From Escherichia phage vB_EcoM_TU01: 64,000 nt of DNA. The stretch is from the sequence record MZ560701; one strand, 5' to 3'. Numbering within the stretch: the stretch's first letter is position 1; every line of letters begins with the position of its first letter. The notes beneath the pieces were generated by a model, which was given only the letters and a program-made list of their open reading frames with translations, ran no database searches and was not told where the DNA came from. The position numbers and the translations under genes were made by a program. Below, in pieces: positions 8,275 through 63,277 of this stretch.

Positions 8275-8507
8275 GTATAGCAATTTACATTAAATCAGAA
8301 TCATGTGATAGTTATCTGTACACATACGATAAAGATGTGTCAGAAGAAAAAATCAAAGACGACCTTAATATGGACCTTGATTTGTTCCGTCCTATTGCAG
8401 ATTACAAACTTGCGGTCTCTAATAGTGAAAGTCCATCTAAAGAAACGCGCATTGAAGAATTTATGTCCAAATTAATGGCCAAATCATGGGACCGAGATGA
8501 TGAGTAA
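8271..8507 (+). CDS. hypothetical protein (78 aa)
   Basis: ATG 8271 overlapping upstream stop. Confidence 0.45.
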   Translation: MSIAIYIKSESCDSYLYTYDKDVSEEKIKDDLNMDLDLFRPIADYKLAVSNSESPSKETRIEEFMSKLMAKSWDRDDE

Positions 8508-8955
8508 GAAAAATAAAGTGAAAGAACTATCAGCCGGTATTATTTTCCTTACCGAAGATAAAGAATTATTCATGGGGCGTGTAACTGGTTCTCGTCCTAA
8601 AGGTTCTTTAGCTCATCGGTGGGATATTCCTAAAGGTCGTGTCGAGCCCGGTGAATCTCCTATCGAAGCCGCTATTCGTGAATGCGAAGAAGAAACTGGG
8701 TTTACACAATACGACCCTGCCTTCCTGAAAGACCTAGGTGAACATCATTACTCAGACAATAAGAATATTCATCTGTTCCTATATACCATCCCTGTAGAGC
8801 ACGAGCAATTCAGAAACAGTGTTTGTAATTCCTATCATACGTTCCCAGACGGACGACAGATTCCTGAATTTGATGCATTCGCTTTAATTAAACCTTCTCA
8901 ATGGGAATATGTAATGGGCAAATCATTATATAAGGTGCTCACTACCCTCCTATAA
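8497..8955 (+). CDS. nudE: Nudix hydrolase
   Basis: Nudix box GRVEPGESPIEAAIRECEEETGF; sits immediately upstream of lysozyme as in T4. Confidence 0.85.
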   Translation: MMSKKNKVKELSAGIIFLTEDKELFMGRVTGSRPKGSLAHRWDIPKGRVEPGESPIEAAIRECEEETGFTQYDPAFLKDLGEHHYSDNKNIHLFLYTIPVEHEQFRNSVCNSYHTFPDGRQIPEFDAFALIKPSQWEYVMGKSLYKVLTTLL

Positions 8956-8989
8956 GTAATAAATACCTCCTATAAACGTGGGAGGTATT

Positions 8990-9478
8990 ATGAATATATT
9001 TGAAATGCTTCGTAATGACGAAGGTCTTAGACTGACTTTATACAAAGACACTGAAGGCTTTTGGACGATTGGCATAGGCCATTTAGTAACAAAGAACCCG
9101 TCTTTAGCCGTAGCTAAAGCTGAACTTGACAGAATGATCGGACGTAAATGCAACGGTACAATTACCCTTGATGAGGCTGAAAAGCTATTTAATGAAGACG
9201 TTGATAAAGCTGTTCGCGGAATCTTGGGTAATGCTAAACTTAAACCGGTATATGATTCTTTAGATGCGGTTCGTCGATGTGCATTGGTCAATATGGTCTT
9301 CCAAATGGGTGTAACAGGCGTCGCTGGTTTTACTAATTCTCTTCGTATGCTTCAACAGAAACGTTGGGATGAAGCGGCAGTAAATCTAGCCCAATCTAAA
9401 TGGTATCGTCAGACACCTAATCGCGCGAAACGCGTAATCTCAACATTTAAAACAGGAACTTGGAAAGCGTATATATGA
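8990..9478 (+). CDS. e: lysozyme (endolysin, T4 e type)
   Basis: [31 protein letters not shown] closely matches T4 lysozyme; ggaggt RBS; track start 8978 is GTG. Confidence 0.95.
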
Positions 9479-9756
9479 AAACATATAGTGAATTTTTATC
9501 AGAATCTATTCTTAACGAAGCTACTGACACATTTGCAACTAAGCTAGGTGCAGCTTTGGTTGAAGCTGAAAGTCTATTAGCACGTATTTCTGAACTTGCT
9601 AGTAAGATAGATACTCGCAAATTTGAACGTACCAGTGATATCGTTAAGCTTGAAGCCTTGTTGCGTATGTGCGATAAACCGGAAGAAATCGCTAAGAACG
9701 GCTCGCTGATGAAACAACGTCTTGAAAAATATATTTCAGGCGCTTCAGAAAAATAG
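9475..9756 (+). CDS. internal-protein-like protein ([11 protein letters not shown]-terminus)
   Basis: Capsid-targeting-type N-terminal motif. Confidence 0.6.
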
Positions 9757-9757
9757 T

Positions 9758-9787
9758 GTTTACTTCCTCCAAGGACTTTGATACTAT
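9758..9787 (+). promoter_or_regulatory. early promoter
   Basis: GTTTAC, 18 nt, TACTAT. Confidence 0.5.
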
Positions 9788-9814
9788 ACATTCATCAACT
9801 ACTTGGAGGAAATT

Positions 9815-10228
9815 ATGACTCGTATCAATTTAACACTTGTTTCTGAACTGACCGACCAACATCTTATGGCTGAGTATCGTGAATTACCACGCGTATTTGG
9901 TGCAGTCCGTAAACATGTTCAAAACGGTAAACGTGTAAAGGATTTTAAAATCTCTCCAACATTTATCTTAGGCACAGGTCACGTAACATTCTTTTACGAC
10001 AAACTCGAATTTTTACGTTTACGACAAATCGAGCTAATCGCTGAATGCTTGAAACGTGGTTTCAAAATCAAGGACACGACTGTCCAGGATATTTCCGACA
10101 TCCCTGCCGAATTTCGTAATAATTATGTCCCGTCCGAAGCGTCCATTGCGATAAGTCAAGCACGCTTAGATGAAAAAATTGCTCAGCGCCCGACTTGGTA
10201 CAAATACTATGGTAAACCAATTTACTAA
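9815..10228 (+). CDS. denV: endonuclease V (pyrimidine-dimer DNA glycosylase)
   Basis: [35 protein letters not shown] closely matches T4 DenV. Confidence 0.9.
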
Positions 10229-10234
10229 GGAAAA

Positions 10235-10351
10235 ATGAAAATGTATCAAGAATTTATCACTGAAGCAGATGACAAAGGTCCTAAAGTAGATGTTGACGAT
10301 ATTGGATACGATTTTAACAACTTCGGAATTATTTCTGGCGGTAAAGCTTAA
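10235..10351 (+). CDS. small internal-protein-like peptide (MKMYQEFITEA)
   Basis: 38 aa ORF with capsid-targeting-like N-terminus. Confidence 0.35.
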   Translation: MKMYQEFITEADDKGPKVDVDDIGYDFNNFGIISGGKA

Positions 10352-10354
10352 ACG

Positions 10355-10384
10355 GTTTACGCTTAAGTGTTAATATGGTATAAT
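10355..10384 (+). promoter_or_regulatory. early promoter
   Basis: GTTTAC, 18 nt, TATAAT. Confidence 0.55.
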
Positions 10385-10414
10385 TACTCTATCAAAACAA
10401 ACAAGGAAACAAAA

Positions 10415-10729
10415 ATGAAAACGTATAAAGAATTTATTGCAGAATCCGCCAACCAACGCGTTGAAGGTGGTTATATTTGGATTGAACAAGTTGAGCCACC
10501 GAGCCGCACTTCTACAGGTAAATGGAAAATTACTGTTGATGGTCCTGGTGGTAAACGTAGGACTCTTAAAGAAATTAATGGGTACTATGAAGAAGCTCTT
10601 TCGGATGCAGGAACTTACATGATGCAAATCATGATTAAAAACCCTGAAAACCGTTTTGCAGCTAAAGTCTTCCGTCGCATCGGTAATAAACTTTATGACG
10701 CATACTCTAAAAACTTCCCTAAAGAATAA
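10415..10729 (+). CDS. internal-protein-like protein (MKTYKEFIAES)
   Basis: Capsid-targeting-type N-terminus. Confidence 0.65.
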   Translation: MKTYKEFIAESANQRVEGGYIWIEQVEPPSRTSTGKWKITVDGPGGKRRTLKEINGYYEEALSDAGTYMMQIMIKNPENRFAAKVFRRIGNKLYDAYSKNFPKE

Positions 10730-10755
10730 CATAAATTAAAACAATAGGAACAAAA

Positions 10756-11058
10756 ATGAAAACNTATNAAGAATTTATNACTGAAGCGCGCGTAACTGCG
10801 GGTAAATTAGAAGCCGCTATAAATAAAAAGGCTCATTCATTTCATGATTTGTCCGATAAAGACCGTAAGAAACTTGTAAGCCTTTATATTGACAAAGAGC
10901 GTATTCTCGCTCTTCCTGGCGCTAATGAAGGTAAACAGGCCAAGCCTTTGAATGCTGTCGAAAAGAAAATTGATAACTTTGCTTCTAAATTCGGTATGTC
11001 TATGGACGACCTTCAGCAAGCGGCTATCGAAGCAGCTAAAGTAATTAAAGGTAAATAA
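10756..11058 (+). CDS. internal-protein-like protein (MKxYxEFxTEA, 100 aa)
   Basis: Capsid-targeting-type N-terminus; size fits a T4 ipII/ipIII-type gene. Confidence 0.65.
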   Translation: MKXYXEFXTEARVTAGKLEAAINKKAHSFHDLSDKDRKKLVSLYIDKERILALPGANEGKQAKPLNAVEKKIDNFASKFGMSMDDLQQAAIEAAKVIKGK

Positions 11059-11060
11059 CA

Positions 11061-11090
11061 GTTTACTTTCTCCTAAAATTGTGATAGTAT
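11061..11090 (+). promoter_or_regulatory. early promoter (diverged duplicate of the denV promoter)
   Basis: GTTTAC, 18 nt, TAGTAT; block resembles 9758-9940. Confidence 0.5.
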
Positions 11091-11115
11091 ATTCATAATT
11101 ACTTGGAGGGGTAAA

Positions 11116-11244
11116 ATGACTTATATTAATTTGACTTTAGTATCTGAACTTGCTGATCAACATTTAATCGCAGAATACCGTGAANTGCCNCGTGTTTTTG
11201 GTATAGTTCGTAAACATGTGGCAAAAATATTTACATTCAAATAA
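11116..11244 (+). pseudogene. truncated denV paralog (N-terminal 42 codons only)
   Basis: [35 protein letters not shown] then premature stop; full denV is at 9815. Confidence 0.6.
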
Positions 11245-11387
11245 CATGGGAACAACCTGGACCTCATGATTCTATGAGGGATTCCCGCCAACCTGTAATA
11301 AGGTCGAGCCCAAGTGCGGTAATGGGTAAATACAGAAATGGACAATTCATGTGCCACGGAATGGCCCCCAACCTTAAGAGAAATAAT

Positions 11388-11927
11388 ATGAGAACATTTT
11401 TAACTGGACCTTATCTATCCCTGATGAATGCTTTTACACACCATTCTGATGCTAGAGTAGAAGAAATTTGTAAGAACGGTTATGTCCCACCATTTGAAGA
11501 CGTACTCAAGCAGTACTGTACACTTCGTTTAGACGGTGGCAGACAATCCGGTAAATCAACTGCAGTAACTAATTTTGCCGCTAATTGGCTGCATGATGGT
11601 GGAACAGTTATTGTTCTTTCTAATACTTCAGCTTATTCTAAAATTTCTGCTGGCAATATTAAAAAAGAATTTTCTCGTTATTCTAGCGATGATATTCGAT
11701 TCCGTTTATTTACTGATTCTGTCCGTAGTTTTATTGGCAATGAAGGTTCTAAATTCCGTGGATTAACGCTTTCTCGTATTCTGTATATAATTGACGAGCC
11801 TATTAAAGCTCCTGATATGGATAAGATTTACAACATACATATTAAAACAGTCCAACACTGTTGCAAAAGCAAATATTGCATCGGCGGTATTGCTCGTCCT
11901 CAATTTTTTGTGATTGGAATGCAATGA
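11388..11927 (+). CDS. P-loop NTPase (Walker A GGRQSGKST, Walker B LYIIDEP)
   Basis: ORF; Walker motifs; start uncertain (in-frame ATG also at 11274). Confidence 0.5.
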   Translation: MRTFLTGPYLSLMNAFTHHSDARVEEICKNGYVPPFEDVLKQYCTLRLDGGRQSGKSTAVTNFAANWLHDGGTVIVLSNTSAYSKISAGNIKKEFSRYSSDDIRFRLFTDSVRSFIGNEGSKFRGLTLSRILYIIDEPIKAPDMDKIYNIHIKTVQHCCKSKYCIGGIARPQFFVIGMQ

Positions 11928-12232
11928 TGACCACTATTGAAGTTTTTGAATATTGTTATAATAGCCCAGTATGCAATAAAAGGGCCCTTGTAGAAAATTA
12001 TGAGATTTACCATTTTAAACCTAAACGATATCGTTTGACTAAAGGTCCATTCGCAGGTCAGCAGGTTCTTTGTACTGCTCCTAATGCACGGTTGATGACT
12101 AGTATTCCGCATTTCAAAATGGAATTTATTGATGGGCCATTTAAGGGATTAATCACTCAAAGTTTAATGGCGTTTAATTCCGTCCCATTTTTGATTAAAG
12201 AAAAAACTTGGATAAATTTATTTTCTAATTGA
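11924..12232 (+). CDS. hypothetical protein (102 aa)
   Basis: ATG overlapping upstream stop. Confidence 0.45.
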   Translation: MMTTIEVFEYCYNSPVCNKRALVENYEIYHFKPKRYRLTKGPFAGQQVLCTAPNARLMTSIPHFKMEFIDGPFKGLITQSLMAFNSVPFLIKEKTWINLFSN

Positions 12233-12238
12233 GGTTAT

Positions 12239-12601
12239 ATGAAAGCATATCAAATTCTTGAAGGTGCACATAAAGGCACTATTTATTTTGAAGACGGTGC
12301 TCAAGCCCGGATTATTGTCTCTAAGACTTTTAAAGAAGACGCTATTGTAGACCCAGAAATTTTCTACGGTTTGAATGCCCGTGAAATTGAAATTGAACAT
12401 CAACCTAAAGTTAAAATTGAAGGTGGACAACATCTGAACGTTAACGTTCTGCGTCGTGAAACTCTGGAAGATGCAGTTAAGCATCCGGAAAAATATCCGC
12501 AGCTGACCATCCGTGTATCCGGTTATGCAGTTCGCTTTAACTCTCTGACTCCAGAACAGCAGCGCGACGTTATCGCTCGTACCTTTACTGAGAGTCTATA
12601 A
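12239..12601 (+). CDS. autonomous glycyl-radical cofactor (GrcA/YfiD-like; T4 Y06I-type)
   Basis: C-terminal [25 protein letters not shown] glycine-radical motif; C-terminal half very close to the E. coli GrcA sequence as recalled. Confidence 0.8.
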
Positions 12602-62516: not shown

Positions 62517-63125
62517 ATGTTTATGCCGTATAATGAATGTGAAATTGAGGAAATGGTTCGACGTGCNCAAAACCCCGAATATCAAGATGTATTGCAGTAC
62601 GAAATNGATAGTCAATTCAGCGACATTGAACAAAGTGTACTGTGGCAATGTATGGAAAACAAGCCAGACAGCATCCAACAAGATTTAAGTGCAATTGTTC
62701 GTAGAAATTGGTCNTCTTCNGTTCCTGAGACAATGTATCGTGGAATCTCTAAGAAAACTATGGCCACACTCGACGATAAAGGCNTTGGTAGTATTATTAA
62801 ATTTGACAGAGTAATGAGCTTTAGTCCGGTGTTCGGTGTAGCACGTAACTTCGCTTCATATAATTTTTATGGAACATTTAATATGTTCTGCATCAAAGAT
62901 GCACCATTTGCTTTCAACTTCCGTGAACATATGCTTAATATGATTCTGGCTGCACCATCTTGTGAGTTCAATGGAGCTTTCCCTGAAGCGACAAGACGGT
63001 CTAATGCTAGACTTATATCTGACGAATGTGAATTTATGCTCCCTATAGGGACTACACTGCGTGTAGATTCTATTATTCAAGATGGACGTTATACAATCTG
63101 GAATCTGTCTATTGTCAGTTACTGA
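62517..63125 (+). CDS. ADP-ribosyltransferase, ModA/ModB-like (R-S-ExE type), copy 2
   Basis: YRGI, SFSPVFGVAR and SDECEFM motifs. Confidence 0.6.
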   Translation: MFMPYNECEIEEMVRRXQNPEYQDVLQYEXDSQFSDIEQSVLWQCMENKPDSIQQDLSAIVRRNWXSXVPETMYRGISKKTMATLDDKGXGSIIKFDRVMSFSPVFGVARNFASYNFYGTFNMFCIKDAPFAFNFREHMLNMILAAPSCEFNGAFPEATRRSNARLISDECEFMLPIGTTLRVDSIIQDGRYTIWNLSIVSY

Positions 63126-63277
63126 CTGGATTGGAATAACCGGATGGAACTCAGAACCATTATAACACATAAAAAATTAAAGCATTTTACGAAAAAAGAG
63201 TGTACACTACCTGAGGGCATGATATTATANACCNATCAGCTAAATGACCTAACGTCCGTAAGACAGAGGAAAATATT

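Follow-up and report, generated by a model that had tools for sequence, protein, structure and literature searches.

A denV remnant, a structured-RNA candidate and the P-loop gene vs.8 in the mosaic internal-protein locus of Escherichia phage vB_EcoM_TU01

We examined a stretch of 64,000 nucleotides from Escherichia phage vB_EcoM_TU01 (sequence record MZ560701; the whole stretch is called the window below, and all TU01 positions refer to it) and, within it, the segment 11061-11927, in which an earlier note had seen a recombination scar. On the plus strand of this segment there follow one another an early promoter with its Shine-Dalgarno sequence (11061-11115), recognised by alignment to the promoter region 9758-9814 of an intact copy of the endonuclease V gene denV; a 42-codon open reading frame (ORF) derived from denV (denV', 11116-11244); a conserved spacer (11244-11370); and vs.8 (11388-11927), a gene for a P-loop protein of 179 amino acids. 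The gap between denV' and vs.8 measures ~140 nt (11245-11387). The locus is 97% identical to that of the T4-like Escherichia phage JS09 (genus Mosigvirus). Genes were assigned from ORF translations, from the JS09 and RB69 annotations and from Pfam and PHROG profile searches. In our account, to which we give a probability of about 80%, the locus is a mosaic, denV' is a pseudogene, vs.8 is native, and the spacer is a structured-RNA candidate.

The spacer as a structured-RNA candidate

The earlier note had described the ~140 nt ahead of the ATPase ORF as non-coding. Non-coding they do appear to be, yet they are no filler of a scar: the spacer is, judging from sequence comparison, the most conserved feature of the locus. 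Matches to it were found in 1,028 phage records, 549 of them covering at least 80% of its length; carriers include Tequatrovirus (with T4), Mosigvirus and Gelderlandvirus as well as Klebsiella, Enterobacter and Yersinia phages. The T4 copy, equivalent to 11244-11370, is found at 64816-64942 of NC_000866.4 on the minus strand. A core of ~40 nt, CCAACCUGUAAUAAGGUCGAGCC-NNNG-YGCGGUAAUGGG, recurs at ~95% in three settings that are not T4-like: beside a tRNA cluster in rV5-like Vequintavirinae (119 near-full-length records, each with at least 80% of the rV5 version), inside a tRNA cluster in Pseudomonas phage PsgM04F, and, in a metagenome contig (L066), immediately downstream of consecutive tRNA genes whose strand it shares. 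The string CCUGUAAUAAGGUCGAGC-N(5-6)-GCGGUAA is almost unchanged among the T4-like, rV5-like and Pseudomonas phages.

In every locus examined the element is oriented like the adjacent genes or tRNAs. The downstream gene is vs.8 in most loci and an internal-protein (IP) gene in three; elsewhere tRNAs or an unrelated small basic protein take this place. In the class C loci (L044, L050, L064) a sigma-70-type promoter, TTGACA-17-TATACT, precedes the element by a few nucleotides and a second such promoter lies downstream. ARAGORN reported tRNA-like genes with four-base anticodons near the element in L066 (3587-3669, minus strand) and in rV5 (L003 3582-3680, plus strand). One carrier of an element 99% identical to that of rV5 is recorded as 'Campylobacter phage C12' (MG065635.1; 137.6 kb, rV5-like), a host label that looks doubtful.

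Outside phages the element was hardly met. A scan of 185,579 bacterial and archaeal species, each represented by a single genome, yielded two matches, both judged from their flanks to be due to chance, and BLAST against all complete E. coli genomes returned no similar sequence. Ten loci picked up in the genome and metagenome scans were set aside as chance matches in unrelated sequence. Rfam 15, at E <= 10, contains no family matching the region 11200-11420, and on rV5 and PsgM04F it gave the adjacent tRNA and low-scoring chance matches elsewhere, none at the element. ARAGORN found no tRNA or tmRNA at the element, and our search of the literature on T4 non-coding RNAs and rV5 small RNAs brought up nothing relevant.

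We judge the 127 nt of 11244-11370 to be non-coding because the invariant blocks fall in all three phases. Measured from the vs.8 start codon, the core lies in phase 0, 1 or 2 among 44 T4-like loci. The two invariant blocks stand 61, 64, 65, 66 or 97 nt apart, no single frame spans both, and a frame through the spacer is open in only 9 of 43 sequences. Insertions or deletions of 1, 5 and 33 nt occur inside it. A structured RNA should not be translated, and the three phases, the in-frame stops and the indels that are not triplets agree with this.

The proposed fold of the TU01 copy (type A) comprises four helices. P1 pairs GGGAA (11248-11252) with UUCCC (11282-11286) and encloses a variable hairpin, here CCUCAU-GAUUCU-AUGAGG (11262-11279). 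The linker J1/2, GCCAA (invariant as (R)CYAA), leads to P2, ACCU-GUAAUA-AGGU (11291-11304), and an invariant UCGA connects P2 with P3, a mini-hairpin of 2-3 bp (GCC-CAAG-UGC, 11308-11317). Behind the invariant linker J3/4, GGUAA, follows P4, in which GGG(U) at ~11324-11327 would pair with (G)CCC at ~11364-11367 around a variable insert and the conserved block CAUGUGCCACGGAAUGGCC.

Support for this fold comes from changes between classes. The P1 strands differ, yet they stay complementary: GGGAA/UUCCC in T4 and TU01, GGGAG/CUCCC in the locus L019, AAAGG/CCUUU, AAAGC/GCUUU, AAAGA/UCUUU or AAAGCUA/UAGCUUU in type B, GGGG/CCCC in rV5, GAAUGU/ACAUUC in PsgM04F and GUGUAU/AUACAC in L066. In P4, UGGGU/ACCCA becomes UGAGU/AUUCA, and the third pair of P3 changes from C.U to G.U, G-C or A-U. 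When 22 type B sequences were made into a covariance model, it recovered all other classes over their full length (33-82 bits), and in the 64-kb window it has a single hit, 11244-11370 (79 bits, E = 6e-19). In the cross-class alignment 82% of the cells pair, against 23-48% when the partners are slid by 1-3 columns. Eight pairs have changed on both sides, among them five of the seven in P1 and two in P4. The covariation score reaches 0.153, compared with 0.071 for shuffles (0 of 500 attain the observed value) and at most 0.081 for the slid controls. Compensatory changes, the second trait expected of a structured RNA, are thus present in P1 and P4 of an alignment that was fitted to the model.

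Several observations weigh against this reading. The alignment was fitted to its own model, and its members are not independent of one another, so that the comparison with shuffles makes the signal look more significant than it is; confined to type B, the covariation is modest. P2 and P3 are invariant and hence offer no covariation test, and for this invariant core RNAalifold gives another pairing. Two candidate helices of the 3' domain, ACAU/AUGU and GCC/GGC, are without compensatory support, and the TU01 copy taken alone folds no more stably than its shuffles (z = 0.37). As to RNAalifold, run on MAFFT alignments it mis-registers P1 between classes, and its alternative pairing of the core is disfavoured by the changes at the third P3 pair. 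Taken as a whole, the spacer is apparently a conserved, covarying and unannotated structured-RNA candidate.

A strand in the middle of the rV5-type RNAs (GGGG or GGAAC) has one complementary partner upstream and another downstream; from subgroup to subgroup the two vary in concert, a hint of alternative conformations. These RNAs also possess an extra conserved 5' domain, CCCUUAGAGGGCUUGAUAGUGCACC (L003 2400-2470), a second copy of which lies 3' of the core in the L044 group.

What might such an RNA do? We lean, at slightly less than even odds, towards a processed small RNA acting in trans rather than towards a leader specific to vs.8. Processing of early transcripts, or of those of tRNA clusters, would yield a stable small RNA that acts by binding a conserved macromolecule of the host or the phage. 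Recognition of such a macromolecule is suggested by a core that stays the same in phages infecting different hosts and that is not tied to any particular downstream gene. The class C promoter directly upstream of the element, with the second one downstream, is an indirect sign of separate transcription. Carried further, and here we are frankly speculating, the 127-nt element could represent a type of trans-acting phage RNA not described before, of which it would be the first member. This RNA would be distributed over T4, rV5-like phages and jumbo-sized Pseudomonas myoviruses and released from early or tRNA-cluster transcripts. The target of its invariant core (the hairpin with the GUAAUA hexaloop, UCGA, the mini-hairpin and GGUAA) would be a universally conserved component of the host, for example a factor of the ribosome or of translation, or a defence protein directed against RNA. 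A conformational switch may come on top in the rV5-type version, through its covarying helices that exclude one another.

The main alternative, which we consider less likely, makes the element a cis-acting device in the vs.8 5' untranslated region: a riboswitch, a translational operator or an mRNA stabiliser. Its position speaks for such a role: with few exceptions among the T4-like phages, 16-40 nt separate the 3' end of the element from the vs.8 start. By eye, the 3' strand of P1 can pair instead with GGUAA(N)GGG in the T4-like and Pseudomonas versions, and the rV5-type middle strand with its two covarying partners is a pattern typical of switches. Against it, three loci of Klebsiella-phage type have an internal-protein gene downstream and not vs.8. 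The rV5-like phages, the Pseudomonas phage and L066 carry the element among tRNA genes or between two promoters, while no vs.8 homologue was found outside the T4-like phages; nor did the element match any Rfam riboswitch.

Much less probable is that the core works as DNA, being a recombination or homing site or a binding site for a protein. A crossover of the module exchange described below does map inside the element, and near-identity of the core across unrelated phages could reflect horizontal spread. Crossovers at short conserved sequences are, however, expected under homologous recombination whatever the function of these sequences, and no endonuclease gene was seen next to the element in the loci examined. 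The complementary changes in P1 and P4 are strand-specific across the classes, and the constant orientation relative to adjacent genes and tRNAs likewise points to RNA.

If the spacer does encode a functional RNA, this would be a new player in phage early-gene and tRNA-cluster biology, with a core common to unrelated virulent myoviruses next to tRNA genes. We regard it as the more valuable part of the locus: it is present in ~1,000 Tevenvirinae records, T4 included, and lies hidden there under the annotated vs.8 ORF.

The denV remnant and its origin

Upstream of the segment, the window contains an intact denV of RB69 type (9815-10228, plus strand, 137 aa; PF03013, E = 3.4e-14, in agreement with the JS09 and RB69 annotations). 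Alignment of 11061-11224 with 9758-9920 by MAFFT and blastn gave 74-75% identity over ~164 nt (E = 1.6e-23) and bore out the view that 11061-11244 is a diverged copy of the denV promoter and 5' coding region. The aligned part takes in the early promoter together with the Shine-Dalgarno sequence and extends over 36 denV codons; similarity ends after CGTAAACATGT. Over its residues 1-37 the 42-codon ORF matches PF03013 (E = 6e-5, slightly above the gathering score) and phrog_1183, endonuclease V (E = 2e-14). Also correct was the premature stop: the truncated gene, provided with an early promoter of its own, consists of 36 codons and a frameshifted tail.

The fragment is not merely a 5' piece fused upstream of an ATPase gene, as had been proposed. 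Alignment to the full-length denV genes of ZN18-type phages and of Tequatrovirus BYEP01 revealed that both ends of a denV gene are retained, at the T4-type position, the ends being marked by GTGGCAAA on the 5' side and TACGGCAAAAATATTTACATT(C/T)AAATAA on the 3' side. The 5' remnant holds the 36 N-terminal codons (11116-11223), and the 3' remnant the final ~25 nt of the gene (11220-11244), out of frame. The 5' part reads to …CGTAAACATGTGGCAAA and continues with AATATTTACATTCAAATAA, which is the 3' end of the denV allele of Yersinia phage ZN18-type Tequatroviruses (…TATTACGGCAAAAATATTTACATTTAAATAA). At the junction stands the hexamer GGCAAA (11220-11225), which occurs in denV at codons 35-37 and again near the stop codon. 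As the two hexamers are out of phase, loss of the ~290 nt between them leads to a frameshift and to the tail …VAKIFTFK before the stop. The fragment is the product of a microhomology deletion within a formerly complete gene.

In T4 endonuclease V the alpha-amine of Thr2 and Glu23 have catalytic roles. Both residues are present in the 42-aa product; about 100 residues of the DenV fold are not: a complete fold measures ~138 aa and has the WYKYYGK region in its C-terminal part, and no more than 36 in-frame codons are left here. All this identifies the copy at 11116-11244 as a pseudogene. Comparable remnants occur elsewhere. In the decay state seen in BYEP01 the promoter and ~70 nt of the denV 3' end are kept, and in several Tequatroviruses, L018 and L020 among them, only ATTTACATTCAAATAA is left ahead of the spacer; these phages represent other decay stages of the same denV remnant.

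The promoters of the two copies are best compared with the promoter-early stem-loop (PeSL) consensus of PST and T4, TTTACW-N17-TAYWAT (PMC4122927). In the cassette of the intact gene (9758-9814), the -35 element GTTTAC/TTTACT (9758-9764) is separated by 17 nt from the -10 element TACTAT (9782-9787), and 9759-9787, TTTACT-17-TACTAT, fits the consensus. This promoter is flanked by an inverted repeat, TTCCTCCAAG/CTTGGAGGAA, with the Shine-Dalgarno sequence within, as in the PeSL type; its 24-nt arms (9755-9778 and 9797-9820) are 75% complementary and have a perfect 10-bp core. The denV' promoter consists of GTTTAC (11061-11066), N17 and the -10 element TAGTAT (11085-11090), followed by the Shine-Dalgarno sequence GGAGGGG (11105-11111). 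The stretch 11062-11090, TTTACT-17-TAGTAT, deviates from the consensus at one position, and the promoter is 93% identical to that of the full-length BYEP01 denV. The inverted-repeat search found no such repeat around the 11061 copy; its stem-loop has apparently been lost. We consider that this promoter is probably still active, and it is positioned to transcribe through the remnant and the RNA element into vs.8-vs.7-vs.6. A simple promoter scanner did not call it, which counts against this, and activity is read from the consensus only.

Comparison with RB69 and T4 explains why two denV copies are present. TU01 is collinear with RB69 at 96-98% identity over 8400-10786 and again from ~11350 on (98% over 8400-10285), and the part from 10786 to ~11345 has no RB69 counterpart; between the same flanks RB69 carries ORF123c and a type B spacer. 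The exchanged block, ~10786 to ~11350, is made up of an IpII-like internal head protein gene (10756-11058, plus strand; phrog_7857, E = 3e-52), the early promoter, denV' and the type A spacer. It is collinear with ipII-promoter-denV of T4 (86%; 10746-11225) and with BYEP01 (93-94%). The left crossover, at ~10756-10786, falls where an internal-protein gene encodes its conserved capsid-targeting sequence (MKTYxEFI), and the right one at ~11346-11366, in the conserved 3' end of the RNA element. The earlier note was therefore right in suspecting recombination at this place. The foreign piece, on this evidence, is the block and not the ATPase gene.

The alignments show the locus as a mosaic with a T4-type block inside an RB69-type backbone, and the recombinant carried two denV genes. 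The latter follows from gene order: the RB69 type has e, IP, denV, ORF125c, Ip10 and vs.8, with denV before the internal-protein genes (in TU01, too, the intact denV is placed upstream of them), and T4 has ipIII-ipII-denV-vs.8-vs.7-vs.6, with denV after them. We propose that a T4-type block, comprising the ipII-like gene, an early promoter, denV and the type A RNA element, recombined into an RB69-type backbone. The incoming denV then lost ~290 internal nt between its out-of-phase GGCAAA hexamers, so that the remnant consists of its promoter, 36 codons and 25 nt of its 3' end. The promoter of the remnant would be positioned to transcribe into vs.8-vs.7-vs.6, as the T4 denV promoter would. One reservation concerns the direction of transfer, from a T4-type donor into an RB69-type recipient, which is inferred from sequence identities and the order of genes and not proven. 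Another concerns precedence: Repoila et al. reportedly sequenced the locus in several T-even phages in 1994 and may already describe a truncated denV.

The origin favoured by the earlier note was different, a duplication of the denV promoter and 42 codons within the genome ahead of a newly acquired foreign ATPase gene, and we find it very improbable. The two blocks are indeed homologous, and they lie in a known hyperplastic region with shuffling of promoter cassettes (PMC2839356, PMC4122927). The fragment is, however, 93% identical to the denV of BYEP01 and 86% to that of T4, compared with 75% to the intact denV of its own genome, and therefore does not result from intragenomic duplication. 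It retains the 3' end of denV besides the 5' end, the RNA element and vs.8 directly follow denV in T4 as well, and vs.8, full length and 96% RB69-like, is hardly a foreign gene.

The denV remnant is a routine but unusually clean case of the reshuffling of T4-like internal-protein loci. Two gene orders recombine via short conserved sequences, a gene that has become redundant is erased by microhomology deletion, and phages are caught at differing stages in the decay of the second denV. Isolated N bases at 10764, 10768 and 10779 (start of the internal-protein gene) and at 11185 and 11190 (denV fragment) leave the conclusions unaffected.

vs.8 and its start codon

A Walker A/B ORF behind the ~140-nt gap had been reported in the earlier note, and such it is: 18 homologues carry Walker A (LDGGRQSGKS) and Walker B (ILYIIDEP) without variation. 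The Walker A motif had further been likened to those of terminase-type ATPases, and the protein called far too short for a full terminase. Profile search gave another picture, as ORF 11388-11927 covers positions 2-177 of the 177 positions of phrog_1488 (E = 2.5e-78), and homologues measure 172-196 aa, start with M(R/K)(T)FLT and were found only in T4-like phages. The gene holds the same position as in T4, RB69 and JS09, with the order vs.8-vs.7-vs.6(GrcA) conserved, and is 96% identical to that of RB69 (from ~11350 on). The AF2 model (pLDDT 82) is a single RecA-like P-loop domain. Foldseek matched it weakly (TM 0.35-0.5) to helicase domain 1 and to terminase ATPase domains; together with NCBIfam and a sequence search of the PDB it identified only a generic P-loop ATPase domain. 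A search of the literature on vs.8 gave nothing relevant. We rejected a terminase large subunit, shortened or not: PF03237 (Terminase_6N) reached 14.5 bits against a cut-off of 22, on 33 residues around Walker A only, and vs.8 has 179 aa in a single domain and no C-terminal nuclease domain. On these profile and model data vs.8 is a full-length, single-domain P-loop (RecA-like/ASCE) NTPase native to T4-like phages. Of the statement that the duplicated promoter drives a foreign ATPase gene, the first half holds in so far as the promoter is positioned to transcribe vs.8; the word foreign does not.

The conserved start bears on the spacer, too. The annotations of T4 (219 aa), JS98 and Bp7 extend vs.8 into the spacer, which would then encode the first 38-40 residues of the longer protein; alternatively, it might specify a small protein of its own. 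Of all proposals this coding reading is the weakest: the ORF 11274-11927 is open in TU01, JS09 and T4, but most of the 44 T4-like loci have an in-frame stop 9-63 nt upstream of the conserved vs.8 ATG, the PHROG profile and the homologues begin at MRTFLT, the core occurs in tRNA clusters without any such ORF, and the phases and indels given above do not suit a reading frame. The longer ORF from 11274 is accordingly best taken as a chance extension of vs.8. Reference annotations of vs.8 look wrong at their 5' ends when set against the conserved start M(R/K)(T)FLT, and the spacer result would correct them as well. In T4 (NC_000866.4, 64253-64912), JS98 and Bp7 the annotated start lies within the conserved RNA element, and in RB69 (62737-63240; 167 aa) it comes 34 nt too late. 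The expected T4 start, at the conserved MRTFLT, would lie at ~64792.

Neighbouring features and comparison with known systems

The remaining genes of the locus, all on the plus strand, are nudE (8497-8955), the lysozyme gene e (8978-9478) and an internal head protein gene (9475-9756) upstream of the intact denV, then ORF125c (10235-10351), a 38-aa IP-like ORF corresponding to RB69 ORF125c, and Ip10 (10415-10729). ORF125c is ~140 nt shorter than RB69 ORF125 (261 nt). A junction at ~10278-10285, with an 8-nt overlap, brings together RB69 positions separated by ~137 nt; this is the second internal deletion of the locus. Downstream of vs.8 follow vs.7 (11924-12232) and vs.6 (12239-12601; PF01228, E = 2e-18), an autonomous glycyl-radical cofactor (GrcA/YfiD-like); T4 vs.6 is already known as a glycyl-radical cofactor. 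Near the start of the window, after a tRNA-Arg gene (2-78) and a 130-aa ORF, a non-coding stretch (441-720) ends in a tRNA-like T-arm (…ACCGGGTTCAAATCCCGGCG). ARAGORN made no call there. The stretch probably corresponds to the T4 stable RNAs C and D.

Among known systems, T4 endonuclease V (DenV, PF03013) is the obvious relative of the fragment, the first 36 residues of which are 80-90% identical to DenV proteins. The fragment differs by the absence of residues 37-138 and by its frameshifted tail, and an intact paralogue lies 1.3 kb upstream. vs.8 has in common with the ATPases of terminase large subunits and SF1/SF2 helicases the Walker A and B motifs, a conserved arginine and a predicted RecA-like fold. 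It differs in being a single domain of 179 aa with neither a nuclease nor a second RecA domain; the matches are weak, and it belongs to a family of its own, phrog_1488, seen only in T4-like phages.

The internal-protein locus is a hyperplastic region in which promoter cassettes mediate shuffling (PMC2839356, PMC4122927), and reports on T-even phages describe its exchange in modules via PeSLs (Repoila et al. 1994, cited in PMC2839356; Arbiol et al. 2010, PMC2839356; Comeau et al. 2014, PMC4122927). The TU01 locus is the same hyperplastic one, e-IP-denV, its early promoters fit the consensus, the 9758 copy carries a flanking inverted repeat of the stem-loop type, and a whole gene block has been exchanged between phages. 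The crossovers, in contrast, fall outside promoter cassettes, in capsid-targeting codons and in the RNA element; the later loss is a 6-bp microhomology deletion, and around the 11061 promoter no stem-loop was found.

For the RNA element we looked for mimicry of familiar RNAs. GUAAUA is a recurrent rRNA loop (preprint 10.1101/354332), and the hairpin of the GTPase-associated centre of E. coli 23S rRNA, GCGUAAUAGC, the 58-mer of which we confirmed in 23S rRNA, is capped by the same hexaloop as P2, where it is invariant. The closing pair is U-A in P2 instead of C-G, and flanks and junction topology differ. A mimic of the L11-binding site was rejected: only the hexaloop is common, no counterpart of the 58-nt three-way junction with its 1067 and 1095 loops was seen, and P1 encloses nothing but the hairpin that belongs to it. 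We take the resemblance as no more than a lead. Inspection by eye, with no support from Rfam, likewise led us to reject mimicry of 5S rRNA loop E, of SRP RNA, of conserved regions of RNase P, of HDV, hammerhead and twister ribozymes, of lambda boxB and of the tRNA anticodon arm, all of which had only few nucleotides in common or the wrong loop size.

The T4 tRNA gene cluster encodes the stable small RNAs C and D. The element has no sequence similarity to them, the window holds one copy of its core, and no tRNA-like end is evident; in T4-like phages it belongs to the leader of an early mRNA, at a distance of ~10 kb from the tRNA genes. Like them, it would be a small structured non-coding RNA of a large virulent myovirus, and in the relatives that are not T4-like it lies in or next to tRNA clusters, from which it is probably released by processing.

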